Positions 2,352-49,211 of a DNA stretch of 57,694 bases are shown here, in pieces. The DNA comes from a virus. Location: UHGV virus genome UHGV-0135630; one strand, written 5' to 3'. Both the position numbers and the translations under genes were made by a program. Position 1 is the stretch's first letter, and every line of letters starts with the position of its first letter. The notes below the pieces were generated by a model. That model was not told where the DNA came from. It saw only the letters and a program-made list of their open reading frames with translations, and searched no databases.

Positions 2352-4460
2352 ATGTCTAAAAAACGTTCCATCAAAGAGGTTCAGGACTTCCGTGACAGTG
2401 TAAAACGAGTAGTCGCTCTCCTTTCAGGTAAAAACATCCCTGTTGCAGAACGAGGAGACGACGCTTATGTACGCTATAACGATGATGGAGAGCCAATTCT
2501 CGTAAACATCCCATCAATCCCGGATAACGCAACACCGGCATTGATGAATGCTGTGCGCGGATTTCTCGATCATGAGGTTGCTCACATTTTGTTTACCGAT
2601 ATTCGTGTGTCCAACAAAATGAGAGAAAAAGGACGCGTTCCTTCCTGGTCGCTATGGAATGCCTTAGAAGACGTGTTCATCGAGCGAAAAATGGGTCAGG
2701 TCTTTAACGGAACAAGACGTAATCTGATGGCAACTCAGCGCCTTATAATCGAAAAAGTCTTTAAACCAAAGGCTTCAGAGGCTATTGCTTATTGTGGCAA
2801 AGATCAGCGCGCGCTTTTTCTAAACTTCTTTCTCTGTCCGGTTGTAAGAGCCTGGGATGGCCAAGCACCGTTCGTAGATTTCATGGATGAATATTGGCCT
2901 GTCATTGAGAAACCAATTTCATTATTAAAAGAACATGGTATCGATGTGGCCGTGCGTAACATGTCTTGCACCGAGGATTGTGTAAAGGTGGCTGCGACCA
3001 TAGCTAAGATCCTCAAAGACACTGAAAGTGAAAGCAAAGGTAAGGAGTCAGCTCCGGGAAAAACTTCCGATCCTTCAGACGCTGACCAGACGGATGCCTC
3101 TGGAGAAAACAATGAAGACAACGAAGATCATGAGACACCCTCATCGTTAGATAATCACAAATCTATTAAATCAGAGTCACATAGTAAGCACAAACATGAT
3201 AATAACGAAAGTGATGATTCAGATAATCCTGAATCATCAGAAACAATATTCGATGATACAGAAAATGATAAAGCGGTATCAGATTCTGATGCTTCTGATA
3301 ACGCGGCGTCAGAATCATTAACCGCTGACCACGAAAAAAGAAAAACGACAGAAGACGGCCCTTCAGACATTCCAACTCCGTCAAAAATGAGTCTGGAAGA
3401 GGCTTTAGAGGAGTTGGATAGCATGGAAGATGAAGTCGGAGGCATGACAGAAGATGCGCTATCCGAAACGATTAAAAGCGAGTTAACAGAAAGCTCGAAA
3501 AGCGAATACAGGCCATACAATCGCTCATACGACTTCATCGGCTCGATTGATCAGGCAGAAGCCCATATCAAACGGCTTATTAAAACATTCTCCGATATTG
3601 ATTTAGGTGGATATCCAATCAGCCGTTATCGCATCGTTCCTGAAGGCAACCAACTCTTCGACAAATATATTGAAAAGCACCTTTCGTCAGGTGTTTCGTC
3701 GACGCTGGCAAAAGACCTGGAACGTGCAATAGCAAGCAGAAACAGAGTTCAGTTTATACCTGGCCAGCGTCGGGGGCGCATTCATGGTTCAAGTATCTAC
3801 AGATTAACAATGAATGATGATCGCGTGTTTCGTAAAAAAGAAGAATCTAAAGCCGTTAACGCCTGTGTTCAACAAGTGATTGATTTATCGGGTTCAATGA
3901 GTGGCAAAACGATAAAACTAGCTCTTGCAAGTGCATATACCATCGCCGATGCACTTGATCGAATAAATGTTCCCAACATTATCACCGGCTTCACTACATT
4001 TGGCAGTCATATGGCAGCAGGAGAACTTAAGGCTATCAAATATGAGTTCTCTCGCTTTGAATCTTTAATGCTACCTATCATCAAAAATTGGAATGAAAAA
4101 GCAAATTCTCGCGAAGTTCGCTCACGTATGGGGTGCGTAGGCTACACATTCCCACTTCTTAATAACGTGGATGGTGAAAGCATAGCCAGCCTTGCATCGT
4201 TATTTTCCGGTCGCTTGGAGGACAGGAAGATCATGCTTGTTCTGAGCGATGGCGCGCCGTGGGCTGTTGGGAGAGGTTTTGACGCCCATTTGCGTTCGGT
4301 TACGAAGCAAATTGAAACGCAGACTGACATTGATTTGATGGCAATTGGCATCATGACTGATGCACCGGAGAGATTTTACGCAAATCATGCCCTGGTAACT
4401 AGTGTTGATAGTCTTGGTTCATCTGTAGTTACTGAACTATCTCGTATCATTTTGAAGTAA
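2352..4460 (+). CDS. von Willebrand factor A domain protein (CobT-like) with acidic linker
   Basis: 702 aa; MIDAS-like VIDLSGSMSG; long D/E/S-rich low-complexity middle; HEVAH (HExxH-like) near N-terminus. Confidence 0.65.
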   Translation: MSKKRSIKEVQDFRDSVKRVVALLSGKNIPVAERGDDAYVRYNDDGEPILVNIPSIPDNATPALMNAVRGFLDHEVAHILFTDIRVSNKMREKGRVPSWSLWNALEDVFIERKMGQVFNGTRRNLMATQRLIIEKVFKPKASEAIAYCGKDQRALFLNFFLCPVVRAWDGQAPFVDFMDEYWPVIEKPISLLKEHGIDVAVRNMSCTEDCVKVAATIAKILKDTESESKGKESAPGKTSDPSDADQTDASGENNEDNEDHETPSSLDNHKSIKSESHSKHKHDNNESDDSDNPESSETIFDDTENDKAVSDSDASDNAASESLTADHEKRKTTEDGPSDIPTPSKMSLEEALEELDSMEDEVGGMTEDALSETIKSELTESSKSEYRPYNRSYDFIGSIDQAEAHIKRLIKTFSDIDLGGYPISRYRIVPEGNQLFDKYIEKHLSSGVSSTLAKDLERAIASRNRVQFIPGQRRGRIHGSSIYRLTMNDDRVFRKKEESKAVNACVQQVIDLSGSMSGKTIKLALASAYTIADALDRINVPNIITGFTTFGSHMAAGELKAIKYEFSRFESLMLPIIKNWNEKANSREVRSRMGCVGYTFPLLNNVDGESIASLASLFSGRLEDRKIMLVLSDGAPWAVGRGFDAHLRSVTKQIETQTDIDLMAIGIMTDAPERFYANHALVTSVDSLGSSVVTELSRIILK

Positions 4461-4555
4461 TTAAAACAGCCTTAATGATAAGTAACTACTTACCATAGTT
4501 AATGGTATATTTATATAAGAACTTGAACGCTCATTAGAGAACAAAGGAAAAGCGC

Positions 4556-5791
4556 ATGACTACTACTGCACTGCAAAATGATAAAAATCCTTCTGATTAC
4601 CTTGTTTGCAAGTGGTGCGGCAAATCATTTCACTATTTTAAGTCCCATGTAGCCAATGGTAATTGCGAGGGCATTCCTGAGTCAGTAAAAGATGCCGATC
4701 CTGACACCGTACTGAAAATGTACACAACGCAGTTTCCAGATGAACCAACGCTATCGAAAAAGGCACTTGATGCAATTCAAGCTAAACGTGCCGAGCAAAA
4801 AAGCGAAATGGCGAAATCTTCTGGCTTGACCAGTAGCCCAGGCTACACAGGCACAGTTGAGTACAAGACAGATCTGGTCGCAGCTCACGAACTGCTAAAC
4901 GTAACGGTGGAAGAACTCGGAACAAAACGTGGGACGCCGCTCATGGTTAGCGTCAACGTCAATACGCCGTATCCAGAGTTCGTTCCAGAAGTGAAGAAGG
5001 GCTACGTATATGGCGACTTCGAACTGATCAAAGATATTTTCATGATGCTTGAACTTGGCATACCTGGCTATTTGTGGGGTCATGCAGGAACAGGCAAATC
5101 GTCATTGCCTACACAGCTATGTGCTTTGCTCAATCGTCCGTTGATCCGTGCCCAACATACAGCATCAATGGAAGAGGCACATGTTACGGGGCAAATTCTG
5201 GCGCGTGATGGCTCTACGTATTTCGAGCCTGGCTTGCTTGCGCTCGCAATGAAGCATGGCTGGGTTTACCTCGCGGATGAATACGACTTTGCGTTTCCAC
5301 AAATTCTTGGCGTGTATCAGCCAGTGCTGGAAGGTGAGGCGTTGGTCATCAAAGAGGCAAATCCAGAATGGCGTCGCATTACTCCGCATGAACGGTTTGC
5401 TTTCATTGGCACTGGCAACACAAACGGTTCTGGTGATGAAACCGGCTTGTACCAGGGTACAAACATCCAGAACGCCGCGAACTTTTCACGTTTTGGCATC
5501 GTTTCGAATGTGAAATACATGAGCAAAGAGGCAGAGATCAACATGTTGATAAATGCCGGCATCGTGGATGAATACGCTGAAAAGATGGTTAAGTTTGCCG
5601 GTATCGTTCGCGATGGATATGAAGAACACCTTATCAGCCAGCCAATTGGGCCTCGTGAGCTTTTGTTGTCGGCCAAGATTGGAATGATGCGAGGCGACTT
5701 TGTGACAGGTATTGAGCGTTCTTTCATTAACAAACTCCCTTCAGCTTCTGCGCAAGCGGCTCGTGAAGTTGTTCAAAAAATATTTGGTTAA
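4556..5791 (+). CDS. AAA+ ATPase (CobS/MoxR-like)
   Basis: 411 aa; Walker A GHAGTGKSS, Walker B VYLADEYD; Cys/His cluster at N-terminus; directly downstream of the vWA gene. Confidence 0.7.
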   Translation: MTTTALQNDKNPSDYLVCKWCGKSFHYFKSHVANGNCEGIPESVKDADPDTVLKMYTTQFPDEPTLSKKALDAIQAKRAEQKSEMAKSSGLTSSPGYTGTVEYKTDLVAAHELLNVTVEELGTKRGTPLMVSVNVNTPYPEFVPEVKKGYVYGDFELIKDIFMMLELGIPGYLWGHAGTGKSSLPTQLCALLNRPLIRAQHTASMEEAHVTGQILARDGSTYFEPGLLALAMKHGWVYLADEYDFAFPQILGVYQPVLEGEALVIKEANPEWRRITPHERFAFIGTGNTNGSGDETGLYQGTNIQNAANFSRFGIVSNVKYMSKEAEINMLINAGIVDEYAEKMVKFAGIVRDGYEEHLISQPIGPRELLLSAKIGMMRGDFVTGIERSFINKLPSASAQAAREVVQKIFG

Positions 5792-5793
5792 TC

Positions 5794-5997
5794 GTGCGTA
5801 AAGGATGTTTCGGCTCTCTTATCGCTGCTTCTGAAACTGGCAAGGCTTGTCTGGGGTGTCCAGACAAGCCCGATTGTCACCAATCAGCAAAAGAAGTTGC
5901 GATTTCGATGTATGGGAAGTTCGTAGGCTTCCCCAATGACAAAATCAAAAAAACCAGAAAGGTAAAAACACATGAAGGCACTGATGGTTCGAACTGA
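5794..5997 (+). CDS. hypothetical small Cys-rich protein (GTG start, uncertain)
   Basis: 67 aa ORF without a clear RBS; overlaps the polymerase start. Confidence 0.25.
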   Translation: MRKGCFGSLIAASETGKACLGCPDKPDCHQSAKEVAISMYGKFVGFPNDKIKKTRKVKTHEGTDGSN

Positions 5998-8900
5998 CTT
6001 CTCACTTGGGGAGTCGGCTCTAAAAGCAGAAAACGCGGTGAAGATTGCCAGAGAAGCTGGCTACACCGCTGTAATTTCAGCAGATAGCATGAATATTGCA
6101 AGTGTTATTCCACTACAACGTGCCGCTGGTGACGACATGGCGGTTATTTGTGGTGTGAAACTAAACATTGTTGATGATCCCACATACGAGCACCGGGCTA
6201 AACTTGCTAAAGAATCTATGAGATGTATGGAATCATTAGAGCGGGGACGTAACTACTCGTTTACCGCTCTAATTAAAAATGAGCAAGGATATCGCGACAT
6301 CTGCGAACTAATGACGGCGGCCAACACACGAGAACAGTTCTACTTTGTACCGCGTCTCTCGCTCGAACAGTTGGTTTCTACATATGCCAAAGGCAACATC
6401 ATCCTGCTTACTTCCGACATCGGTAGCGTGTTCCAACGCAACGATTTTGCAAAAATCATAAGCACACTGATTACAGCGGGTGGAAAAGACAACTTCTATA
6501 GTGTGGTTTATCCGCACCCTACCCCATTCTACGACCAGATTAACGTCCGGGCGATGAAAGTCGCCAGCGCATTGAAAATAGAGCCAGTGGCGTTCTATCC
6601 CGCTTATTACGAATCGATCGACGATGCAGACATTAAAGACATCGCGCACATGGTTACGAACAACATCAAAATCGACCAGCCGCATCGTCTGCGTATCCCC
6701 CACCAGCGAGATAACGCCGTCAATGGTCGCCGCCATCTCCTTGAGGCGCTTAAAGCCTTCTCCGTTCGCATGGATGTGCCTGTAACAGCTGCAATGGCCT
6801 CAACAACGCAGGATACCATTATCGATTCCTGCACATGGCGCTGGCATGAATTGCCACCAGCACTGCCAAAGATGGCAGACGACGAGCCTGCAACGCTTAT
6901 GAAACTGGCTGTTGCAGGGCTGCGTAAACGTCTTACCACAAAAGAGTTTGGCTACACACCACCTGCTTCTGAGAACAGGGTTTATGTTGAGCGGCTAAAG
7001 TACGAAATGGACACGCTGACTCGCCTGGGATTTTGTGGTTACTTCCTGATGGTACGCGATCTGATGAATCATAGTCGTGAAACTGGCATTCCCGTTGGGC
7101 CTGGTCGTGGTTCCTCTGCCGGTTCTCTGGTGGCGTGGTGCATAGGCATAACCAACGTCGACCCAATCCGTCACGGTCTTCTGTTTGAGCGTTTCATCAA
7201 CCCTGAGCGTCTCGACTTGCCGGATGCGGACTTGGACTTCAGCCAGGCACGTCGCCATGAGGTGATCGAGTATCTGAATGAACGCTACGGCGAAGATTAC
7301 GTTGCGGGTATTCCGAACTTCACCTACCTGGGCGCAGCCTCTGCACTACGTGATACCGCTCGTATTTATGGTGTGGAGTCCGCAGATATGGCGGTATCAA
7401 AAGAACTGAAGAACGCTGAGGATGATAGCCTTCCATTGGAAGAACTGCGCGAACAACTGGCAAGTCTCGACAAATACGCAACAAAATATCCTGATGCATT
7501 CAATGCAGCCTGCAAGTTACAAAGCCTTATGCGTGGCTTTGGTAGACATGCGGCAGGGATGATCGTAGCAGGTGTTCCTCTGACAGAACGTACACCGGTT
7601 GAGCGCCGTGGTGACGCGCGTTGTATCGCATTTGACAAGCGTTACTGCGAGGCTATGGGCCTAATTAAGCTGGACGTGCTTGGCCTGGCAACTCTCGATT
7701 TGCTCGATAGTGCAAAACGCTACATAAAAGAGAACACAGGTGAAGATATCAATCTTGATGCCATTTCTCTTGAAGATCGCAAGGTGCTGGATGGTTTTGC
7801 TGCTGGGTACACTCAAGGTGTTTTCCAGCTTGAATCAGGCCCAATGCGCAAGCTGCTTAAAGATTTAGGTGGTGGAATTGAGCCAATGAGCTTTAAAACG
7901 GTCGTCGCTACAACTGCGCTCTTCCGGCCGGGGCCAATTCAATCAGGCATGTTGGATGACTATGTTTCTGTCGCCAAAGGCTTTATGACGCCGGAATCAT
8001 TACACCCCGTTCTTGATGAACTTACCGCGGAAACAAATGGCGTGATTCTCTATCAGGAACAGACGATGAACGCGACTCGATTGCTTGCCGGCTTCACAAT
8101 GGCTGAAGCTGACGCTGTGCGTTCCGCAATCGGTAAGAAGAACATGGAAAAAATGAAGAGCATGGGCGAGAAGTTCATCGTTCAGGCTCAAGCTGGCTGG
8201 ATAGACGTTGAGCTGGAAGATGGCACTACACAGCGCATTCACCGTGCGGAACATTTTAAATGCGAAGACGGAACTCTGAAAACTGTCGAAGAGGCACTTG
8301 AGCACGGCGCAAAACTACCTATAAACGCAGTACGCGTTACAGCGTCACATCCAGGGCTATCAGAGATGAAAGCGAAGGAGATCTGGACCGCATTTGAGAA
8401 AAACGGAGCCTATCAGTTCAATAAATCACACTCCGTTGCTTATTCTTTAATCAGTTATCAGTCTATGTGGCTAAAGACGCACTACCCTGCTGAGTTCTTC
8501 GCAGCTGCGCTCACCATTCTGGGCGAGGATAAGCATCAGGGGCTGGTGAAGGATGCGCTGACCTATGGCATTCGCGTATTGCCACCAGACGTTAATGTGT
8601 CATCTAACCGAATTGAGATCCGCACACTCGAAGACGGCAGTCAGGCACTGTATGCGCCATTCTCTGCTGTGAAAGGCTGTTCTGAAAATGGTTGTCAGGC
8701 AATTATGCGTGCGCGTGAGAAAGTTGGTGGCAAATTCGAGTCAGTGGCACAATTCGATGAAGCGGTCGAGAAGCGTGCATGTAACAGTCGTGTACGCGAG
8801 TCGCTTCATAAAGTAGGGGCTTTTGCGTCAATTGAGCCAGGCAGTCTGCCAGCAACTGATCCTGAACGACTGCGCGACCAGGCTGAGCTGATGGGCAATC

Positions 8901-9490
8901 TCATCATTGACGCTGTTAAAGCATCACGTCCGTTCGAAATGAATCCTAAGCGTTCTGCCGAAATCAACGTACTCATGACACGTATGGCGGCTGAAATGGG
9001 CTTGGGTGAGGAGTTGATACGCCCGACTATTGGTATTAAACCCAAAATCATGATCATTCTGGACAATGCGAACGGCAATGACGCTCGTACCGGCTACTTC
9101 ATGGAGAACGGATACGACGACTTTAAGGCAAAACTACTGACAGTTGGAGATCTGCGCATGGGCGATCTTTATGTCACGGGTGTTTGTAAGAAGGTTAAGG
9201 ACAAAGAGAAAGACTATACCAAAGACGAGATAGGCCAGTTCACAGACTTTATGCGGGAAGAAATTAATCTTGTACGACCAACCTACATTTTGACGTGTGG
9301 TAGTCGTTCAACCGCACTATTTAACAATAAGAGTAAACCATCAGATCTGATTGGTCGTAAGGAGTACTTCCCAGAGCTTGATGCAACCGTCTTCTACGGA
9401 TTTAACCCGAATATCCTGTACTTCCGACCGGAAGAAGGAGAGCGACTGGAGGCCATTCTGGCTGATATCGCGGAGACAATAAATAAGTAA
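5972..9490 (+). CDS. dnaE: DNA polymerase III alpha subunit-like replicative polymerase (PHP domain + Pol III alpha core)
   Basis: 1172 aa; GFCGYFLMVRDL...GPGRGSSAGSLVAWCIGITNVDP and FERFINPERLDLPDADLDF are DnaE hallmarks. Confidence 0.85.
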   Translation: MKALMVRTDFSLGESALKAENAVKIAREAGYTAVISADSMNIASVIPLQRAAGDDMAVICGVKLNIVDDPTYEHRAKLAKESMRCMESLERGRNYSFTALIKNEQGYRDICELMTAANTREQFYFVPRLSLEQLVSTYAKGNIILLTSDIGSVFQRNDFAKIISTLITAGGKDNFYSVVYPHPTPFYDQINVRAMKVASALKIEPVAFYPAYYESIDDADIKDIAHMVTNNIKIDQPHRLRIPHQRDNAVNGRRHLLEALKAFSVRMDVPVTAAMASTTQDTIIDSCTWRWHELPPALPKMADDEPATLMKLAVAGLRKRLTTKEFGYTPPASENRVYVERLKYEMDTLTRLGFCGYFLMVRDLMNHSRETGIPVGPGRGSSAGSLVAWCIGITNVDPIRHGLLFERFINPERLDLPDADLDFSQARRHEVIEYLNERYGEDYVAGIPNFTYLGAASALRDTARIYGVESADMAVSKELKNAEDDSLPLEELREQLASLDKYATKYPDAFNAACKLQSLMRGFGRHAAGMIVAGVPLTERTPVERRGDARCIAFDKRYCEAMGLIKLDVLGLATLDLLDSAKRYIKENTGEDINLDAISLEDRKVLDGFAAGYTQGVFQLESGPMRKLLKDLGGGIEPMSFKTVVATTALFRPGPIQSGMLDDYVSVAKGFMTPESLHPVLDELTAETNGVILYQEQTMNATRLLAGFTMAEADAVRSAIGKKNMEKMKSMGEKFIVQAQAGWIDVELEDGTTQRIHRAEHFKCEDGTLKTVEEALEHGAKLPINAVRVTASHPGLSEMKAKEIWTAFEKNGAYQFNKSHSVAYSLISYQSMWLKTHYPAEFFAAALTILGEDKHQGLVKDALTYGIRVLPPDVNVSSNRIEIRTLEDGSQALYAPFSAVKGCSENGCQAIMRAREKVGGKFESVAQFDEAVEKRACNSRVRESLHKVGAFASIEPGSLPATDPERLRDQAELMGNLIIDAVKASRPFEMNPKRSAEINVLMTRMAAEMGLGEELIRPTIGIKPKIMIILDNANGNDARTGYFMENGYDDFKAKLLTVGDLRMGDLYVTGVCKKVKDKEKDYTKDEIGQFTDFMREEINLVRPTYILTCGSRSTALFNNKSKPSDLIGRKEYFPELDATVFYGFNPNILYFRPEEGERLEAILADIAETINK

Positions 9491-9496
9491 TAAAGA

Positions 9497-9520
9497 AAAC
9501 CCGCCTGTTGGCGGGTTTAT
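9497..9520 (+). terminator. rho-independent terminator after the polymerase gene
   Basis: aaaacccgcctgttggcgggttt hairpin followed by T/A-rich tract. Confidence 0.5.
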
Positions 9521-9793: not shown

Positions 9794-10009
9794 TCAGCTT
9801 AGAGCAACGACATTTGCTGCTGCTGGGCCTTTAGCCCCATTCTCGATAGAGAATTCGACCTGCTGGCCTTCTTCCAAAGTGCGGAAATTATTACTCTGAA
9901 TTGCCGAAAAATGTACAAAAACATCTTTACTGCCATCAGCAGGAGAAATAAAGCCAAAGCCTTTATCAGAGTTAAACCATTTTACTAAACCAGTCATTTT
10001 ATTAGACAT
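9794..10009 (-). CDS. cspA: cold-shock protein, CspA family
   Basis: [37 protein letters not shown] is near-identical in pattern to E. coli CspA; start moved to the internal Met of the 103 aa ORF. Confidence 0.85.
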
Positions 10010-10338
10010 AGATATTACCTTCTTAATTTTGTGAGCCACATAGTGCGGCGAGAATTTGATCTGTATAGATTGGGACTTACTTAGGCACTTAAGGAGGAGA
10101 CTCACGAAGAAGGGAAATCAGAAGATAACACTGAACTGAGACTGCTTTACTAAAACTGCTTACATAAGGTCTGTCTTGCAAACCAACGATGCTATTAACG
10201 CATACCCCTTCTTTTCATGCAACCTTTATTTTTCAAAGATAACTAATTTTTGTCACCATTGGTTTAGTAAACGTTAACGAACCAGACGATGCCAGACACC
10301 ATTACAGAGAACAGATGCCCGCCAATTGGCGGGCATCA

Positions 10339-10902
10339 TTATGCGCATTTCGCAATATCTTTGCGGCGTTTAATCAGTTTCTCCGCAATTTGCTCTATTT
10401 CGTTGAAATCTTTCGAGACGCTGTTTCGAAGCGCCAGATTCCATTTACTCAAAGTTCGGGCATTTTGGACAATTTGATCGCCCTCTTTAAGTCGTCCGTT
10501 ATTCATGAGCCATTCAGCCACATCAGCCCAATCCCAGAGAGGAGACTGGCCTTTTATGCGTTGTACAGGGCAAGGGAAGTCGCCGCTTCCGCGCTTACCG
10601 TCTTTGAGCAACGCCACTGCCTGGCGAGACAGGTCTGTCAGTTCCGCGATATCGCTTAAGCCCACAAGAGCCGAGTCGACGGATTCAACAATTGCACCGA
10701 TACCGGCTGATTCAATATTGTCGACCGCAGATGCGATAGCTGCATCAAGTGATTGTGCTTCGCGGTCAAATTCTACATAGACGGAGTTTCCATATGCGCA
10801 AATTAGCGCATCGTCACAGCCGTTTTGGTACAGCGCGTCTTCCAGTCCTTCCGTCTCATACGATACGCCTGAGAGCGTCAGAGTGAAGTTATAAAGCGCC
10901 AT
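10339..10902 (-). CDS. hypothetical protein (possible C-terminal DNA-binding region)
   Basis: Start at internal Met with AAAGGA RBS; no confident family recognised. Confidence 0.45.
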   Translation of the reverse strand: MALYNFTLTLSGVSYETEGLEDALYQNGCDDALICAYGNSVYVEFDREAQSLDAAIASAVDNIESAGIGAIVESVDSALVGLSDIAELTDLSRQAVALLKDGKRGSGDFPCPVQRIKGQSPLWDWADVAEWLMNNGRLKEGDQIVQNARTLSKWNLALRNSVSKDFNEIEQIAEKLIKRRKDIAKCA

Positions 10903-10962
10903 AGTTTTCCTTTGAAGATAGTTGGACAGTTTCTGCAAAAGGCGGCTAATGCCGCCTTGAAA

Positions 10963-11187
10963 TCATTTACAACGATCAACCATTCGTTTGATCTGTTTGG
11001 CATGGTTTTCGGGATTACCCGGAGTCGACCATACGCTCATTTGGTGAGTTTTGTGTTCACCTTCTGGATTACCGCATCGCAGTCTGCAAAAACAATGTGC
11101 AGCACCACCAGCTGCTACCCAGATCCAGCCTTTACTTAATGCATAGTCAATGGCTGCTTGAATATGCTTATTCGGATGTTGCTTCAT
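10963..11187 (-). CDS. hypothetical small Cys/His-containing protein
   Basis: 74 aa; GGAGG RBS; HCFCRLRC...H cluster; co-oriented with and 24 nt upstream of the previous gene. Confidence 0.45.
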   Translation of the reverse strand: MKQHPNKHIQAAIDYALSKGWIWVAAGGAAHCFCRLRCGNPEGEHKTHQMSVWSTPGNPENHAKQIKRMVDRCK

Positions 11188-11989: not shown

Positions 11990-13018
11990 ATGTCTAAGAC
12001 ATTACTTGATTTGCTTAACAAAACTCGTGAAGACATTGCCGCCAAACGTGGCAACAACGTTGATCTGACTCGCTTAAAAGACGGCGTCAACTATATCCGC
12101 ATCTTCCCGAATAAAGACGACCCAAACGGTAAGTTCTTCCAGACTTTCGGTATGCACTACGTTAAGTATCAGAACGAGGAAGGTAAAGAAGCAACCAACG
12201 CTTATATTTGTGAGCAACATACTCACGGTCGCGCTTGTCAGCTATGCGAAATGGTTATGGAAGGTCGCGCTCGTCACAAGGGCAACAAAGCAATGGAAGA
12301 ACGCATCGGTCAAATGCGTGCCACTCCTCGCTACCTGGTCAACGGCATTCTTTCTGCTCGTGAGGATTTCGCAGATGCTGAGAAATGCCAGTTAATCGAG
12401 CTGCCGTCTACTGTATTCGATGATATCTGCAAAGCAATCACCGAAGACATCGCTGATGATATCGGCAATCCACTGAGCAAAGAGGAAGGCTACGCATTCC
12501 TGATTAAACGTACTGGCTCTGGTCGCGATACCAAATATGACGTCTCGCCTAAGCGTAAAGTCTACAAAGGCGATATCGAAGATAAATTCTGGAACACCCA
12601 GCATGATCTGATCGCATACGCAAATCAGGCTGATGAAACTCGTCTTCTGTCGACAGTTCGCACTATGGGTCGTCTGATTGGCATCGCTGCACCAACTGCC
12701 GCAGCATCTGCACCAGCAATTTCCTCAACCGCGAAAACATCGGCTGCGGCACTACCTGGATTTGGCTCTGTCACTGGTCATACGGAGGGTGCGACTGCTG
12801 TAGCAACCGCTCACACCCCAGCTTCTGAACCAACCAGTCTGGTTGATGAAGAAATCCTCCGTGCCGTTGAAACTGAATTTAAACCAGAAGCAAGTTCCGC
12901 TGCCGTTGCCGTATCAGTCAAAGAGTCTGAAGCAGTCGCAGCGACATCTGTAGCAGCCGCATCTGCGACGGAAGATGAAGGTCTGGATGACCTACTGAGA
13001 GAGCTGGACTCTCTGTAA
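11990..13018 (+). CDS. single-stranded DNA-binding protein, T4 gp32-like
   Basis: IRIFPNKDDPNGKFF, Cys/His cluster CEQHTHGRACQLCE, Ala/Ser-rich linker, acidic C-terminus DEGLDDLLRELDSL. Confidence 0.65.
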   Translation: MSKTLLDLLNKTREDIAAKRGNNVDLTRLKDGVNYIRIFPNKDDPNGKFFQTFGMHYVKYQNEEGKEATNAYICEQHTHGRACQLCEMVMEGRARHKGNKAMEERIGQMRATPRYLVNGILSAREDFADAEKCQLIELPSTVFDDICKAITEDIADDIGNPLSKEEGYAFLIKRTGSGRDTKYDVSPKRKVYKGDIEDKFWNTQHDLIAYANQADETRLLSTVRTMGRLIGIAAPTAAASAPAISSTAKTSAAALPGFGSVTGHTEGATAVATAHTPASEPTSLVDEEILRAVETEFKPEASSAAVAVSVKESEAVAATSVAAASATEDEGLDDLLRELDSL

Positions 13019-13034
13019 TCCCATTACGTGACCA

Positions 13035-13060
13035 GTAAGGCGTCTACGGACGCCTTACTT
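13035..13060 (+). terminator. rho-independent terminator (GGCGTC...GACGCC hairpin family)
   Basis: taaggcgtctacggacgcctta + T-run; same stem recurs near 15369 and 16510. Confidence 0.45.
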
Positions 13061-13078
13061 TTTGGAAGGAATGTACCG

Positions 13079-14023
13079 GTGAATTATCTCTTCGTAGATG
13101 GCAATAGCCTGGGTTATTACCACCAACAATCTGACAAATTGCACAACGGCGAAATGGAAGTACAGGCTGCTTTCGGCTTTGTTAAGAACGTCCGTCGTTA
13201 TGCCTCCATCCTCCATGCCCGACCTATGATTCTTTGGGATGGATTTAGTGACAAGCGTCGCGACTTTTACCCGGACTACAAAGCAAATCGCGACGACGAT
13301 CCTGATATGAAAAAGATGAAGGAAGGCTTTGCTATCCAGAAGCCATACATCCTCAAAATGATGACCGCGCTTGGAGTTACCCAACTCATTGCAAAAGATG
13401 CAGAAGCGGATGATCTGGCCGGGCTGCTGGTATCCCGCATGGCACCGCAGCCAACCGTTGAACACATCTATCTGTTAACAGGCGATAGCGACTGGCTTCA
13501 GTTAGTTCGTGAAAACGTAAGCTGGGTAAGCCTGCGTGAAGACGCCAAAAACAAGCAGGTTAATTTTGAGCAATTTGCGGAGCTGACAGGATTCGCCACG
13601 CCTCGCGCATTTTTGGAAGCAAAAGCATTACAAGGCGATAACTCGGACAACATTAGCGGTGTTGGTGGCATTGGTGCTGGCGGTGCGAAAGAGCTGCTGC
13701 ATGAATGGGGAAGTGTCGCAACGATGGTACGCGGCATCAACGACGGCTCAATCGTGGTTAATAAAGGGCGTCATAAGACCGCCTTCAACAAACTAGCGAA
13801 GAATGCCTTCAACGAGAAAACAGGCTGTCGAATGCTCGAAGCGTTCAAGAGAAACATCACGCTAATGAACCTGATTGAGACGAAGTTTCCGCCTACCGAA
13901 ATCGAAACAATCAAAGGCAATCGTGACGTGAAAGCATTCGAGCAACTGTGCTACGAGCTGAATTTCCGTTCGTTCCTTGAAGATCTTGAAGTGTTTGTTC
14001 TTCCATTCGAAAGGTATTGCTAA
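13079..14023 (+). CDS. 5-prime to 3-prime exonuclease / flap endonuclease
   Basis: YLFVDGNSLGYY and NISGVGGIGAGGAKELL are FEN/Pol I 5-3 exonuclease motifs; GTG start after AAGGA chosen downstream of the terminator hairpin. Confidence 0.8.
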   Translation: MNYLFVDGNSLGYYHQQSDKLHNGEMEVQAAFGFVKNVRRYASILHARPMILWDGFSDKRRDFYPDYKANRDDDPDMKKMKEGFAIQKPYILKMMTALGVTQLIAKDAEADDLAGLLVSRMAPQPTVEHIYLLTGDSDWLQLVRENVSWVSLREDAKNKQVNFEQFAELTGFATPRAFLEAKALQGDNSDNISGVGGIGAGGAKELLHEWGSVATMVRGINDGSIVVNKGRHKTAFNKLAKNAFNEKTGCRMLEAFKRNITLMNLIETKFPPTEIETIKGNRDVKAFEQLCYELNFRSFLEDLEVFVLPFERYC

Positions 14024-14291: not shown

Positions 14292-15365
14292 ATGGCAAAA
14301 GGAAAATCCGCACTGGCACTTGCTCTGAAAAAGAAAATCGGTAGCAACGACGAAATTCAGAAAGTAACTCATTGGATTGATACAGGCTTTCCACCGTTAA
14401 ACAAAGCTATTTCTGGTCGTTACGATGGCGGCTTCCCATGTGGTCGTATCGTCGAAGTATTCGGTCCTCCAAGTGCAGGGAAAACGTTCCTTGCAACAGC
14501 AGCGATGATCTCCGCTCAAAAACAAGATGGTCTGGCGGTATTCCTCGATCATGAAAACAGTTTTGACGTTGGCCTGGCTGTAGCCAATGGCCTGAACGCA
14601 GATGAGGATGACGGTCAGTGGGTATACAAGCAGCCTGACACCTTCGAAGACTCTGTAGAGTTGATCGGCACAATACTTAAATTGGTACGTGATGAAGAGC
14701 TTATCCCTGAATCAGCACCTATCTGTATCGTGGCTGACTCACTTGCGTCTATGGTTCCGAACTCCAAAGCCGAGAAGTTCGAAAAGATGGCTGAAGGCAC
14801 TGCCAAAGACAAAGATCAGCTAAACATGAACGACAATACGGCACTGGCTCGTGCGACAAGTGCGAACTTCCCTACTCTGGCTTTGTGGGCACGCAAATAC
14901 AACGCCTGCATCATCTTCTTGAATCAGGTTCGCACAAAAATCGGTGTAATGTTTGGCGACCCTACTACGTCGCCAGGTGGAGATTCACCGAAGTTCTACG
15001 CTTCTGTACGTATCCGTCTTGGTGCATCGGTGATGAAGGATGGTAAAGAGAAGATCGGCCAGGACGTAGGCGCAGAATGCATCAAAAACAAAGTTGCACC
15101 ACCGTATGGCAAATGCACCTGGAAATTCTACTTCGATCCTACTCGTGGCCTCGACGTTATCGAATCGCTCGTCGAGTACATGCTGGAAGAAGGATACCTG
15201 CCAAAGAACGCCAGCGGGCGAGTTGAAATTGGTGACAAGAAATACACCAAATCGCAGATCGTCGAGATGTATCGGGAGAAGCCACTGGCTGAAATCATTG
15301 CGGCTTTGCAGGCAATCGACGACCGAAGAGCAAAAGACAACCCCACCGAGTCAGTAGAAGAGTAA
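14292..15365 (+). CDS. RecA-family recombinase
   Basis: 357 aa; Walker A GPPSAGKT; RecA-like core layout; good RBS. Confidence 0.75.
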   Translation: MAKGKSALALALKKKIGSNDEIQKVTHWIDTGFPPLNKAISGRYDGGFPCGRIVEVFGPPSAGKTFLATAAMISAQKQDGLAVFLDHENSFDVGLAVANGLNADEDDGQWVYKQPDTFEDSVELIGTILKLVRDEELIPESAPICIVADSLASMVPNSKAEKFEKMAEGTAKDKDQLNMNDNTALARATSANFPTLALWARKYNACIIFLNQVRTKIGVMFGDPTTSPGGDSPKFYASVRIRLGASVMKDGKEKIGQDVGAECIKNKVAPPYGKCTWKFYFDPTRGLDVIESLVEYMLEEGYLPKNASGRVEIGDKKYTKSQIVEMYREKPLAEIIAALQAIDDRRAKDNPTESVEE

Positions 15366-45919: not shown

Positions 45920-47020
45920 TCACACTGCGCGGAATGCGATTTCGCCAGGTATTACTTCGCCTTGCCAATACATTTGTGCGGCAACGCGATCTGCGAGGTC
46001 ACGGTAAATAGCAGTAAATTCGCTGTCTGGGCGACTAATAACGGTTGGTGTTCCGTTATCCAGATCTTCACGAAGTGAGATATGAAGAGGCATTTGGCCT
46101 AACAACTGCGTGTTGTATTTCTCTGCCAGCTTCTCTGCACCACCGGTGCCAAAAATTGGCTCGTGATGACCGCAGTTACTGCAAATATGCACACTCATGT
46201 TTTCGACGATACCCAGTACCGGCACTTCGACTTTTTCGAACATCACAATGCCTTTCTTCGCATCGATCAGCGCGATATCTTGCGGCGTAGTTACCACCAC
46301 AGCACCCGTTACAGGAATGTTCTGCGCCAGCGTCAACTGAATATCACCAGTGCCAGGCGGCATATCGAGAACGAGATAGTCCAGATCAGGCCACAATGTT
46401 TCCTGCAACATCTGCATCAGCGCCTTGCTAGCCATCGGTCCGCGCCACACCATTGCATTGTCGTCGGTGACCAGATAACCAATAGAGTTGGTTGCCAGGC
46501 CATGAGACATGATAGGTGCCATGTGAGTACCGTCCGGTGAGGTTGGACGTTGGTTTTCCGCGCCCAGCATGGTTGGAATTGATGGCCCGTAGATATCGGC
46601 ATCCAAAATACCAACTTTCGCACCTTCAGCAGCCAACGCCAGTGCCAGGTTTACCGCCGTTGAGGATTTACCCACGCCGCCCTTGCCTGAGCTTACGGCG
46701 ATAATATTCTTAACGCCATTAATGCCTGGTTGGTTTTTGACGCGCTTAAGCGTGGCAATGTTGTACGACAGCTTCCAGTCAATAGCCTTTGCGCCAGTGA
46801 TACGGAGCAGATCACCACTACATTGCTCTTTCAGGTCTTCAAAAGGCTTATTCCACACAAAAGGCATGATCAGTTCGACATGCAGTGTGTCATCCATCAA
46901 CGCAACATGGTGTAACGCTTTAAGCGTTGTCAGGTTGTGTTTCAGGGTTGGGTGCTGAAAATTAGCCAGCGTACCGGCTACCATTGCTCTCAGGGCATCC
47001 GGCGATTTGGACTCGCTCAT
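45920..47020 (-). CDS. apbC: iron-sulfur cluster carrier ATPase ApbC/Mrp
   Basis: 366 aa; Walker A SGKGGVGKSS; CxxC motif; collinear with E. coli Mrp as recalled. Confidence 0.9.
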   Translation of the reverse strand: MSESKSPDALRAMVAGTLANFQHPTLKHNLTTLKALHHVALMDDTLHVELIMPFVWNKPFEDLKEQCSGDLLRITGAKAIDWKLSYNIATLKRVKNQPGINGVKNIIAVSSGKGGVGKSSTAVNLALALAAEGAKVGILDADIYGPSIPTMLGAENQRPTSPDGTHMAPIMSHGLATNSIGYLVTDDNAMVWRGPMASKALMQMLQETLWPDLDYLVLDMPPGTGDIQLTLAQNIPVTGAVVVTTPQDIALIDAKKGIVMFEKVEVPVLGIVENMSVHICSNCGHHEPIFGTGGAEKLAEKYNTQLLGQMPLHISLREDLDNGTPTVISRPDSEFTAIYRDLADRVAAQMYWQGEVIPGEIAFRAV

Positions 47021-47177
47021 CCCGTCTCCTTTATTTTAATTTGCGCAATTGTCGCCTTGTAGTGTACTCCAGCTACGACATTTAATCATTTATGAGAAAT
47101 GCTGTTATCACATGGCAGACATAAGACCATTTTGTTACTATCAAGCCCCTTTTCACTACAAAGAAGTAATGCCTACT

Positions 47178-49211
47178 ATGACCCAAGTCGCGAAGAAAAT
47201 TCTGGTGACGTGCGCACTGCCGTACGCTAACGGCTCAATCCACCTCGGCCATATGCTGGAGCACATCCAGGCTGATGTCTGGGTTCGTTACCAGCGAATG
47301 CGCGGCCACGAGGTTAATTTCATCTGTGCCGACGATGCCCACGGTACGCCGATCATGCTGAAAGCCCAGCAGCTTGGTATTACCCCGGAGCAGATGATTG
47401 GCGAAATGAGTCAGGAGCATCAGACTGATTTCGCAGGCTTTAATATCAGCTACGACAACTATCACTCGACGCACAGCGAAGAGAACCGTCAGTTGTCTGA
47501 GCTTATCTATACTCGCCTGAAAGAGAACGGTTTTATTAAAAACCGCACCATCTCTCAGTTGTACGACCCGGAAAAAGGTATGTTCCTGCCGGATCGTTTT
47601 GTGAAAGGCACCTGCCCGAAATGTAAAGCGCCAGATCAATACGGCGATAACTGTGAAGTCTGCGGCGCGACCTACAGCCCGACTGAACTGATTGAACCGA
47701 AATCGGTGGTTTCTGGCGCTACGCCGGTAATGCGTGATTCTGAACACTTCTTCTTTGATCTGCCCTCTTTCAGCGAAATGTTGCAGGCATGGACCCGCAG
47801 CGGTGCGTTGCAGGAGCAGGTGGCAAACAAAATGCAGGAGTGGTTTGAATCCGGCTTGCAACAGTGGGATATCTCCCGCGATGCGCCTTACTTCGGTTTT
47901 GAAATTCCGAACGCGCCGGGTAAATATTTCTACGTCTGGCTGGACGCGCCGATTGGCTACATGGGTTCCTTCAAGAATCTGTGCGACAAGCGCGGCGACA
48001 CTACCAGCTTCGATGAATACTGGAAGAAAGACTCTACCGCTGAGCTGTACCACTTCATCGGTAAAGATATCGTTTACTTCCACAGCCTGTTCTGGCCAGC
48101 AATGCTGGAAGGCAGCAACTTCCGCAAGCCGACTAACCTGTTTGTTCATGGCTATGTGACAGTGAACGGCGCGAAGATGTCCAAGTCTCGTGGCACCTTC
48201 ATTAAGGCCAGCACCTGGCTGAATCATTTTGACGCTGACAGCCTGCGTTACTACTACACTGCGAAACTCTCTTCGCGTATTGATGATATCGACCTGAATC
48301 TGGAAGATTTCGTTCAGCGCGTAAATGCCGATATCGTCAACAAAGTAGTGAACCTGGCCTCCCGTAACGCTGGCTTTATCAACAAGCGTTTTGACGGCGT
48401 GTTGGCAAGCGAACTGGCTGCCCCTGAACTGTACAAAACCTTTACTGATGCCGCTGAAGTTATTGGCGAAGCGTGGGAAAGCCGCGAATTTGGTAAAGCG
48501 ATCCGTGAAATCATGGCGCTGGCTGATCTGGCTAACCGCTATGTCGATGAACAGGCTCCGTGGGTGGTGGCGAAGCAGGAAGGACGCGATGCCGATCTGC
48601 AGGCGATTTGCTCTATGGGCATTAACCTGTTCCGCGTGCTGATGACTTACCTGAAACCGGTACTGCCGAAACTGACAGAACGTGCGGAAGCATTCCTGAA
48701 TACGGAACTGACCTGGGATGGCATCCAGCAACCGCTGTTGGGCCACAAAGTGAATCCGTTCAAGGCACTGTATAACCGTATCGATATGAAACAGGTGGAA
48801 GCACTGGTGGAAGCATCCAAAGAAGAAGTGAAAGCAACTGCCGCGCCAGTTACTGGCCCGCTGGCTGATGATCCGATTCAGGAAACCATCACCTTTGACG
48901 ACTTCGCCAAAGTTGACCTGCGCGTGGCGCTGATTGAAAACGCAGAGTTTGTTGAGGGTTCTGACAAGCTGCTGCGCCTGACGCTGGATCTCGGTGGCGA
49001 AAAACGCAATGTCTTCTCCGGCATTCGTTCTGCTTACCCAGCCCCACAGGCACTGATTGGTCGTCACACCATTATGGTGGCTAACCTGGCTCCGCGTAAA
49101 ATGCGCTTCGGTATCTCCGAAGGCATGGTGATGGCTGCTGGCCCTGGCGGGAAAGATATCTTCCTGTTAAGCCCGGATGCTGGTGCTAAACCTGGCCACC
49201 AGGTTAAGTAA
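47178..49211 (+). CDS. metG: methionyl-tRNA synthetase
   Basis: Begins [26 protein letters not shown] (HIGH-type motif), KMSKS present, C-terminal tRNA-binding domain; start moved to the internal Met of the 720 aa ORF. Confidence 0.95.

Follow-up and report, generated by a model that had tools for sequence, protein, structure and literature searches.

What does a pair of cobaltochelatase-like genes do in an element of Escherichia coli, a bacterium without the aerobic vitamin B12 pathway in which such genes act? The question is raised by UHGV virus genome UHGV-0135630, of which one strand of 57,694 nucleotides (the window) was analysed. On its + strand, a gene for a CobT-like protein of 702 aa (nt 2352–4460) is followed after 95 nt by a gene on the same strand for a CobS-like AAA+ ATPase of 411 aa (nt 4556–5791). 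Few 'auxiliary metabolic genes' (AMGs) in phage genomics are as widespread as viral cobS and cobT, which belong to the core of marine cyanomyoviruses and are routinely read as vitamin B12 genes. We propose instead that the pair encodes a CobS/CobT-type machine, not a chelatase, that would remodel a client protein for phage DNA replication or host takeover, and we give this statement as a whole a probability of roughly 0.5. Its parts differ in strength. A motor–adaptor complex that does not act as a chelatase here is very probable on the sequence evidence, and a replication-linked client is suggested tentatively.

Over the 8 kb around the pair, the identity of the window is 99.9% with the circular E. 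coli plasmid pAVS0223-B (NZ_CP124417.1, 108.5 kb), 97% with Escherichia phage Cyrano and about 80% with Salmonella phage SSU5. These identities mark it as part of an SSU5-like phage-plasmid, a temperate siphovirus element of approximately 108 kb. The pair region is carried by about 200 of 5,426 complete E. coli genomes, and a CobS-like gene is found in 494 GenBank phage records. Already on record, under a variety of names, are the pair itself, the phage families to which it belongs, the viral cobST cluster and the combination of a metallopeptidase–von Willebrand factor A (vWA) protein with a MoxR-class ATPase. In the near-identical plasmid PGAP names the first gene 'cobaltochelatase CobT-related protein' and the second 'AAA family ATPase'; phage records name both 'porphyrin biosynthesis protein', the usual label is 'porphyrin/cobalamin biosynthesis', and its HExxH motif often earns the CobT-like gene the mistaken name of peptidase. 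In the Cyrano record (OV696614.1, 42785–50773) the pair appears as 'dimethylbenzimidazole phosphoribosyltransferase' and 'cobalamin synthetase', which confuses the CobT and CobS enzymes of Salmonella nomenclature with the unrelated Pseudomonas-type chelatase subunits CobT and CobS. An earlier sequence-only reading of the window had described such pairs as recurrent in phages and of unexplained function, which agrees with the 494 records and with a literature that holds hypotheses only (PMC8651126, PMC7824862). The value of the locus is practical, in that it places a long-unexplained pair in E. coli, where genetics is easy; the points that may be new are details. A B12 role being very unlikely here, the real function is open to ordinary genetics in that host.

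The 702-aa protein has the architecture of a CobT-like adaptor. Pfam matched CobT at aa 9–292 (E 2.6e-27) and CobT_C, the CobT vWA domain, at aa 492–701 (E 2.2e-83); phrog_1576 matched over the full length (E 3e-300), and the closest solved structure is cobaltochelatase CobT (9uka_G, E 2e-17). The N-terminal domain (aa 1–221; nt 2352–3014, + strand) is predicted to adopt an M48-like zincin fold. In an AlphaFold2 model of aa 1–225 (mean predicted local distance difference test score, or pLDDT, 92.4), a helix, a three-stranded sheet and a helical bundle succeed one another in the order published for CobT_N. By composition, the Ser/Asp/Glu-rich segment that follows (aa ~222–385; nt 3015–3506, + strand) is an acidic disordered linker, with 25–35% Asp and Glu and less than 10% hydrophobic residues per 40-aa window. 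Within the SSU5 group the linker is 27–48% identical versus 75–85% for the folded domains, and across 143 relatives it has a median length of 157 aa (range 21–306) and a mean Asp/Glu content of 38%. A phmmer alignment of residues 439–697 with residues 346–616 of the 9uka_G chain defines an equivalent of the CobT 'shaft' at aa ~463–503 (nt 3738–3860, + strand), a region 75–81% conserved in the SSU5 group. The vWA domain proper (nt 3861–4457, + strand) contains the MIDAS (metal ion-dependent adhesion site) motif DLSGS (aa 511–515; nt 3882–3896, + strand), read from the sequence and aligned to CobT. N605/D607 and D633 supply further MIDAS positions by alignment, the CobT counterparts being D422/S424/S426/N518/D546.

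The 411-aa protein matched Pfam AAA_5 (aa 173–293, E 1.9e-15) and phrog_249 (E 2e-106). Its closest solved structure is cobaltochelatase CobS (9ujv_A, E 2e-25 over aa 142–411); CbbQ (5c3c, E 4e-6) and NorQ (9qh4, E 3e-3) were further relatives detectable in the PDB, and CbbQ_C was matched by 29 of 42 ATPase homologues. Motifs and alignment to CobS place the AAA+ core and small subdomain at nt 4979–5788 (+ strand). Walker A, GHAGTGKS (aa 175–182; nt 5078–5101, + strand), aligns with CobS G71–S78, and Walker B, VYLADE (aa 237–242; nt 5264–5281, + strand), with CobS D141/E142. K181, D241/E242, N288 (sensor-1), R312 (Arg finger) and R367 (sensor-2) are invariant in the 42 homologues, which are 43–91% identical; K181 falls in the K77 region of CobS, and the other counterparts are N186, R210 and R271, respectively. 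The sequence-only reading had identified the first protein as a vWA CobT-like protein with a MIDAS, an HEVAH motif and an acidic linker and the second as an AAA+ CobS/MoxR-like protein with an N-terminal Cys/His cluster. Both descriptions are borne out by Pfam (CobT/CobT_C and AAA_5, respectively), PHROGs, NCBIfam and PDB searches and by the conserved motifs.

How far the pair resembles a working chelatase can be judged against Brucella melitensis CobSTN, as seen by cryo-electron microscopy (bioRxiv 10.64898/2026.07.21.739949; PDB 9ujv and 9uka series). There, CobS forms a hexameric ring, and CobT consists of an M48C-peptidase-like N-domain, a disordered linker of ~90 residues and a vWA domain; the shaft, Q373–R413, precedes the vWA domain and enters the pore of the CobS ring, and CobN sits between the two CobT domains near the MIDAS. 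The phage ATPase keeps the Walker A and B, sensor-1, Arg-finger and sensor-2 residues of Brucella CobS, and the phage adaptor shares with Brucella CobT the M48-like N-domain, the acidic disordered linker, a segment of shaft length (~40 residues) before the vWA domain, and the MIDAS. Moreover, R69, D73 and N124 of the phage protein are the counterparts of R76, D80 and N130, with which CobT touches the small subdomain of CobS, and D73 and N124 are invariant across the phage CobT-like family. The differences are equally clear. The phage ATPase lacks the last 13 residues of CobS, which make a hydrophobic contact there, and an extension of ~100 aa with a putative zinc finger replaces CobS_N. CobS_N (PF12556) was found neither in the window ATPase nor among the families that its 42 homologues match; it is present in the genuine Brucellaceae CobS of locus L089. 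The sampled Brucellaceae CobT has lost the HExxH and its Glu, which are intact in the phage protein, and unlike the cobaltochelatase the phage pair is encoded in a replication operon without a CobN partner or a host pathway.

The scores tell the same way. Both NCBIfam equivalogs were missed, TIGR01650 (PD_CobS) with 85.2 bits against a cut-off of 558.55 and TIGR01651 (CobT) with 70.4 against 759.05. CobN is absent among the 128 features annotated by PGAP on the 99.9%-identical plasmid, the ribonucleotide reductase of which is class Ia (NrdAB) and not the B12-dependent class II. That the host has neither CobN nor an aerobic corrin pathway is taken from the literature, where B12 synthesis in E. 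coli required ~30 heterologous genes, cobN, cobS and cobT included (PMC6249242). Hijacking of host CobN by viral CobST, as proposed for archaeal and bacterial tailed viruses (PMC8651126), therefore cannot hold for the E. coli element. Because the scores fall below the equivalog cut-offs, no CobN is annotated and E. coli has no aerobic B12 pathway, the pair is almost certainly not a cobalt chelatase or B12 enzyme in this element. Among hosts of related phages, hijacking of CobN likewise cannot apply to Salmonella and Klebsiella, which use CbiK, or to Vibrio cholerae, which makes no corrin. Some related phages do infect hosts with CobN, such as Synechococcus and Rhizobium, a point in favour of a B12 role.

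One feature that sets the phage adaptor apart is a zincin site. Its HEVAH motif (aa 74–78; nt 2571–2585, + strand) is followed by E106-D107-x3-E111 (nt 2667–2684, + strand), invariant residues that are candidates for the third zinc ligand and helper positions. A library of 1.84 billion representative proteins yielded 5,036 relatives, of which the best 150 were examined; 146 of these were full-length, and 143 of the 146 (30–59% identical to the query) carry HE[VIC][AGS]H at about residue 70. In an alignment of 33 sequences with 30–67% identity, D73, H74, E75, H78, E106, D107 and E111 are invariant, and the spacing is of gluzincin type, with HExxH followed by a Glu 28 residues after H78. Conservation of HExxH together with E106, D107 and E111 indicates that the zincin site is under selection. 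That it is an active, zinc-binding peptidase is a tentative prediction, with at best an even chance of being right. The sole peptidase-family match of the protein is to phrog_459 'peptidase' (E 3e-8, aa 72–128).

The Brucellaceae CobT residues aligned to HEVAH read S-M-A-L-R, and the metal site is thus gone from that protein. This N-domain was rebuilt from a frameshifted locus adjoining a genuine CobS, and profile comparison with the phage family gave E 1.3e-4 at a probability of 54%; a search of PDB sequences with the phage N-domain profile did not find Brucella CobT_N at E ≤ 10. Since a homologue search seeded with a C-terminal fragment of Brucella CobT returned mostly truncated proteins without the N-domain, loss of HExxH in true CobT is documented by one genuine sequence. 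Retention of the zincin site in viral proteins, as against its loss in that one CobT, may be new. The phage N-domain profile also gave a local match to the anti-CRISPR AcrIIA26 (PDB 9zq6_B, E 0.0016 over ~50 residues), in which E49-D50, essential for blocking the protospacer-adjacent motif site of Cas9, align with the invariant E106-D107 in the motif N-x-x-E-D-x-F-I-E; this match is probably due to chance.

The second distinguishing feature lies at the ATPase N-terminus, where a Cys/His cluster and a Y56..FPDEPTLS segment (aa 16–70; nt 4601–4765, + strand) make up a putative Ros/MucR-like zinc-finger domain, assigned from invariant residues and weak profile matches. The window protein has C18, C21, H26, H31 and C37, and in 28 N-termini aligned for the cluster C18, C21, H26 and H31 are invariant; Y56 and S67 are invariant too. 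The general pattern, C-x2-C-x4-H-x4-H-x4-(H/C) and then Y...FPDAPxLS, occupies an extension of ~100 residues beyond the CobS-aligned region, and AlphaFold2 gave a pLDDT above 90 for aa 21–80. C18, C21 and H31 fit the C-x2-C-x9-H spacing of Ros. Ros87 (2jsp) has this spacing and, after it, a 'Y...(F/W).(P)D(A/Y)P' segment like that of the phage protein. The phage ATPase differs from Ros/MucR in an extra invariant His (H26) and, in the SSU5 group, in Cys37 at the fourth ligand position. Ros/MucR proteins are stand-alone regulators, whereas the phage finger is fused to an ATPase. The evidence for a Ros/MucR-like zinc finger is no more than moderate. If it is one, its kinship would make it a likely DNA-binding module, although we hold actual DNA binding with some reserve, at a little under even odds. 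Fusion of such a finger to an ATPase may also be new. In the Rhizobium-phage branch the finger has degenerated, and the CobS proteins of cyanophages and ICP2-like phages have no zinc-finger N-terminus. A DNA-binding helix-turn-helix (HTH) suspected in the CobS N-terminus of cyanophage S-RIM2, which would have pointed to convergence in such extensions, found no support, as Pfam gave no match.

The link to replication comes from gene order. To the left of the pair lies the lysogeny-switch side of the operon, where a divergent HTH repressor-like gene (nt 1403–1789, − strand; Pfam HTH_19 E 8e-4; an HTH transcriptional regulator according to PGAP) adjoins an integrase gene; divergent HTH genes are arranged likewise in the related loci L084, L094 and L095. 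A rightward gene string opens with an open reading frame (ORF) of 70 aa (nt 2041–2253, + strand; phrog_2627, E 9e-41), and small ORFs of 58–101 aa occupy the matching position upstream of the pair in relatives. The pair comes next, followed by a Cys-rich ORF of 67 aa (nt 5794–5997, + strand; phrog_6337, E 3e-46) and a DnaE-type DNA polymerase III alpha gene (nt 5972–9490, + strand; Pfam PHP, DNA_pol3_alpha, finger and HHH_6 domains). Farther on in the replication cluster are genes for the gp32 single-stranded DNA-binding protein (nt 11990–13018), a 5'–3' exonuclease, FEN (ORF 13028–14023, named from the PGAP annotation of the near-identical plasmid), and an intein-free RecA of 357 aa (nt 14292–15365, + strand; Pfam RecA, E 2e-42). 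A terminator scan found no + strand terminator-like site between nt 2041 and ~8800.

This order is not peculiar to the SSU5 group. A first scan of viral contigs returned close SSU5-like loci only, and the context of distant relatives was taken from the contigs that encode them. In all eight relatives sampled, with ATPases 35–52% identical, the genes run CobT–CobS–(sigma-like)–Cys-rich protein–DnaE–gp32–FEN–RecA. Three of the eight are metagenome contigs, marine or other, two of them ~100 kb and the third 26 kb long; the rest are a 28-kb metagenome contig with bacterial-type flanks, integrase-flanked loci that appear to be prophages on large contigs of Ectothiorhodospira and Photobacterium genomes, Pseudomonas phage Nican01 and Rhizobium phage RHph_N2_6. 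The strict CobT–CobS–Cys-rich protein–DnaE block may be a new observation. The sequence-only reading had put the pair at the head of the replication module, and so it stands, ahead of DnaE, gp32, FEN and RecA and in the same position in distant relatives. Outside this clade, the pair of the T4-like cyanophage S-RIM2 lies between gp46/47 and the sliding clamp and clamp-loader genes, and that of Vibrio phage JSF27 lies upstream of helicase and Pol I genes. These contexts associate the pair with DNA replication generally and not with one polymerase family. An ImmA-like anti-repressor protease, a role suggested by the adjacent HTH gene, was considered for the pair and dropped, since no HTH neighbour accompanies it in lytic cyanophages and ICP2-like phages.

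The 67-aa Cys-rich ORF begins 3 nt past the ATPase stop codon and overlaps the start of dnaE by 26 nt. PGAP left it unannotated in the near-identical plasmid, yet it is intact in 78 SSU5-like loci, and its N-terminal GCFGS-x11/12-C-x2-C-x5-C is common to a protein of 158–200 aa encoded directly upstream of DnaE in every distant relative. By these signs it is a real gene, and its product is possibly a further component of the machine or a DnaE accessory.

Taken together, these features suggest how the machine might work. The 411-aa protein would be a hexameric AAA+ motor acting through the 702-aa protein as its vWA/MIDAS adaptor. The shaft segment of the adaptor would thread into the pore of the ATPase ring, the adaptor N-domain would dock on the ATPase small subdomain, and a protein client would be gripped between the MIDAS face and the N-domain, at the site that CobN occupies in the chelatase. 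ATP hydrolysis would then remodel the client, the zincin site might cut it, and the zinc finger would probably bring the motor to DNA. The pair would be the first large product of an early rightward operon running into DnaE, and the client would likely be a component of replication or host takeover, or an obstacle to either. If this reading is correct, a new phage replisome accessory would be defined, and much of the metagenomic annotation of 'B12 AMGs' would need revision.

Several observations weigh against such a machine or its parts. Concerning the complex, pore and interface residues of CobS such as R147, and its C-terminal helix A322–V326, are not conserved in the phage ATPase. For the finger, Pfam ROS_MUCR (PF05443) matches 10 of the 42 homologues, with a best E of 7.7e-5, and leaves the window protein unmatched; the top PDB match of the N-terminal region profile is Ros (2jsp_A) at an E of only 0.0013; Foldseek gave no significant structural match for the region; and most relatives have His as the fourth ligand, where the window protein has N36/C37. 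No Pfam peptidase family matches the 702-aa protein at E ≤ 0.01, and Pseudomonas phage Nican01 has lost the zincin motif (SEISK) while keeping the gene order, which means that the zincin site, and any proteolysis by it, cannot be indispensable in every lineage. As to replication, position within the module is circumstantial, for T4-like genomes interleave functions. Promoter and terminator scans gave no more sites than shuffled sequence, so that it is spacing and strand alone that suggest co-transcription of the pair with dnaE. The client is identified by conjecture, and literature searches found no experiment on any viral pair.

The CobT-like protein of Nican01 (Nickievirus; L090, 5844–7925) deserves separate mention as a natural 'dead-peptidase' variant: the zincin motif is lost (GFLDSEISKVLY), ES replaces ED, and the MIDAS is kept.

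Among other explanations, a role in genetic conflict is unlikely but survives best. The pair could disable an immune or nucleoid protein of the host early in infection, as a counter-defence device, or could serve the plasmid prophage as a module for superinfection exclusion or defence. MoxR–vWA modules are frequent in prokaryotic conflict systems (PMC7159879), the early expression predicted for the pair, together with a protease site, would be consistent with degradation of a host factor, and the local AcrIIA26 match points the same way. Against this, Pfam detected no effector domain typical of defence systems, and the pair is fixed in a conserved operon and not in a variable island, and is a core gene of lytic cyanophages (PMC8651126). 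PADLOC gave no real match. The aside in the sequence-only reading that MoxR–vWA pairs also occur in defence contexts thus finds no support at this locus. A known defence system was rejected as a candidate after a search of PADLOC-DB 2.0, in which the sole match, to DrmE, was marginal (E 8e-4, 16 bits) and fell in the low-complexity linker, and the ATPase had none.

A virion-assembly chaperone with a processing protease is likewise improbable, if anything slightly more so. Iyer et al. (2021, PMC7824862) proposed such a role for group 2.2 jumbo phages, where a MoxR–vWA pair of the same domain architecture has a metallopeptidase at the N-terminus; a MoxR–vWA pair is needed for tail development in Acidianus two-tailed virus, and an intact HExxH would be in keeping with a protease that processes structural proteins. 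However, in the near-identical plasmid the structural genes form a separate block tens of kb from the replication cluster, whereas the pair stands at the start of the replication genes beside the lysogeny switch, as it does in the eight relatives. A zinc finger of DNA-binding type would also be unexpected on a capsid or tail chaperone.

Two further schemes are quite improbable. In one, the pair would be a chaperone inserting a metal cofactor into a phage enzyme, either the PHP domain of DnaE or ribonucleotide reductase, on the model of NorQ/NorD, CoxD/CoxE and CobST. This idea can draw on the theme of motor, adaptor and effector in metal insertion, which the authors of the CobSTN structures review (bioRxiv 10.64898/2026.07.21.739949), and PHP-domain DnaE is a constant neighbour within the clade; yet cyanophages and ICP2-like phages have the pair alongside family B or A polymerases and no DnaE, the sequence gives no pointer to a particular metal client, and the conserved zincin site would go unexplained. 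In the other scheme, the pair would clear phage DNA of proteins as an ATPase–protease tethered to the DNA. A finger-bearing AAA+ ring would sit on DNA while the vWA-MIDAS adaptor captured a DNA-bound protein, for example a nucleoid silencer, a part of the host replisome or a protein that is stalled or cross-linked, and the zincin N-domain would cut this target as the motor pulled. Were this true, eukaryotic Cdc48/p97 with Wss1 or SPRTN would have in the pair a counterpart from bacterial viruses, and its retention among replication genes in viruses with three unrelated polymerase families would be explained.

Least credible is an auxiliary metabolic role, in which viral CobS/CobT takes over host CobN or the CobN-like ChlH and raises cobalamin synthesis: although cobaltochelatase subunits are the closest characterised relatives and the hypothesis is published (PMC8651126), the far-too-low equivalog scores, the kept zincin site, the zinc finger in place of CobS_N, a near-identical plasmid with class Ia ribonucleotide reductase and no annotated CobN, an E. 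coli host without the aerobic pathway or its substrate (PMC6249242), and the presence of the pair in SSU5-like and ICP2-like phages despite CbiK-using or non-corrin hosts all speak against it.

The surroundings of the pair yielded additional observations. In most distant relatives a sigma-70 region-2-like gene lies between the CobS-like and Cys-rich genes (L084, 10182–10856; L087, 10185–10832; L091, 9230–9865; L094, 10254–10877; L096, 4560–5252); it is missing from the SSU5-like group and from the Photobacterium relative. The C-terminus of DnaE carries a uracil-DNA glycosylase (UDG)-like domain (aa 1053–1168; TIGR00758 UDG_fam4, E 5e-7), and the polymerase of relatives matches Pfam UDG. Directly 3' of dnaE is a GC-rich hairpin (nt 9497–9518). 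Between DnaE and gp32 lies a minus-strand cassette (nt 9794–11187) that encodes a cold-shock-domain protein, an HTH-regulator ORF (so named by PGAP; no Pfam match) and a 74-aa ORF; it is absent from distant relatives and in this resembles a moron insertion. The RecA allele of pAVS0223-B (L001, 24294–26633) is 779 aa long and annotated only as 'LAGLIDADG family homing endonuclease', and the Ectothiorhodospira relative also has a RecA with an intein (L094, 17375–19188). This looks like a polymorphism of intein presence and absence masked by annotation.

In the SSU5-like plasmid, the interval from the DNA ligase gene to the CobT-like gene holds four tRNA genes (Asn, Tyr, Thr and Ser), a glutaredoxin gene and the integrase/HTH pair; the stretch lies in pAVS0223-B at L001 8628–9281, upstream of where the window starts. 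In Nican01 and the marine relative L087, just one or two small ORFs separate ligase from the CobT-like gene. Elsewhere in the window, the ORFs at nt 45920–47020 (− strand) and 47049–49211 (+ strand) presumably encode an ApbC-type iron-sulfur cluster carrier and a methionyl-tRNA synthetase, respectively, as judged by correspondence with the PGAP annotation of the plasmid, and stand out as host-like genes on a phage-plasmid.

Among related known systems, the viral cobST cluster (Liu et al. 2021, PMC8651126) has the same two families side by side in tailed viruses. The cobST genes of cyanophages and ICP2-like phages differ from the E. coli pair in a CobS that begins without the zinc finger and in the polymerase families encoded alongside. 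The pair of group 2.2 jumbo phages is alike in outline, as a metallopeptidase–vWA protein with a MoxR-class ATPase, a likeness drawn from its domain description; an assembly role is proposed there (PMC7824862), whereas the E. coli pair lies in a presumably early replication operon. Further motor–vWA adaptor systems are NorQ/NorD, CbbQ/CbbO, RavA/ViaA, CoxD/CoxE and ATV p618/p892. These MoxR-class systems act on known metabolic enzymes through adaptors that lack a zincin N-domain, and none is replication-linked. What they share with the arrangement proposed here is the principle of a hexameric ATPase acting on one client through a vWA-MIDAS adaptor.

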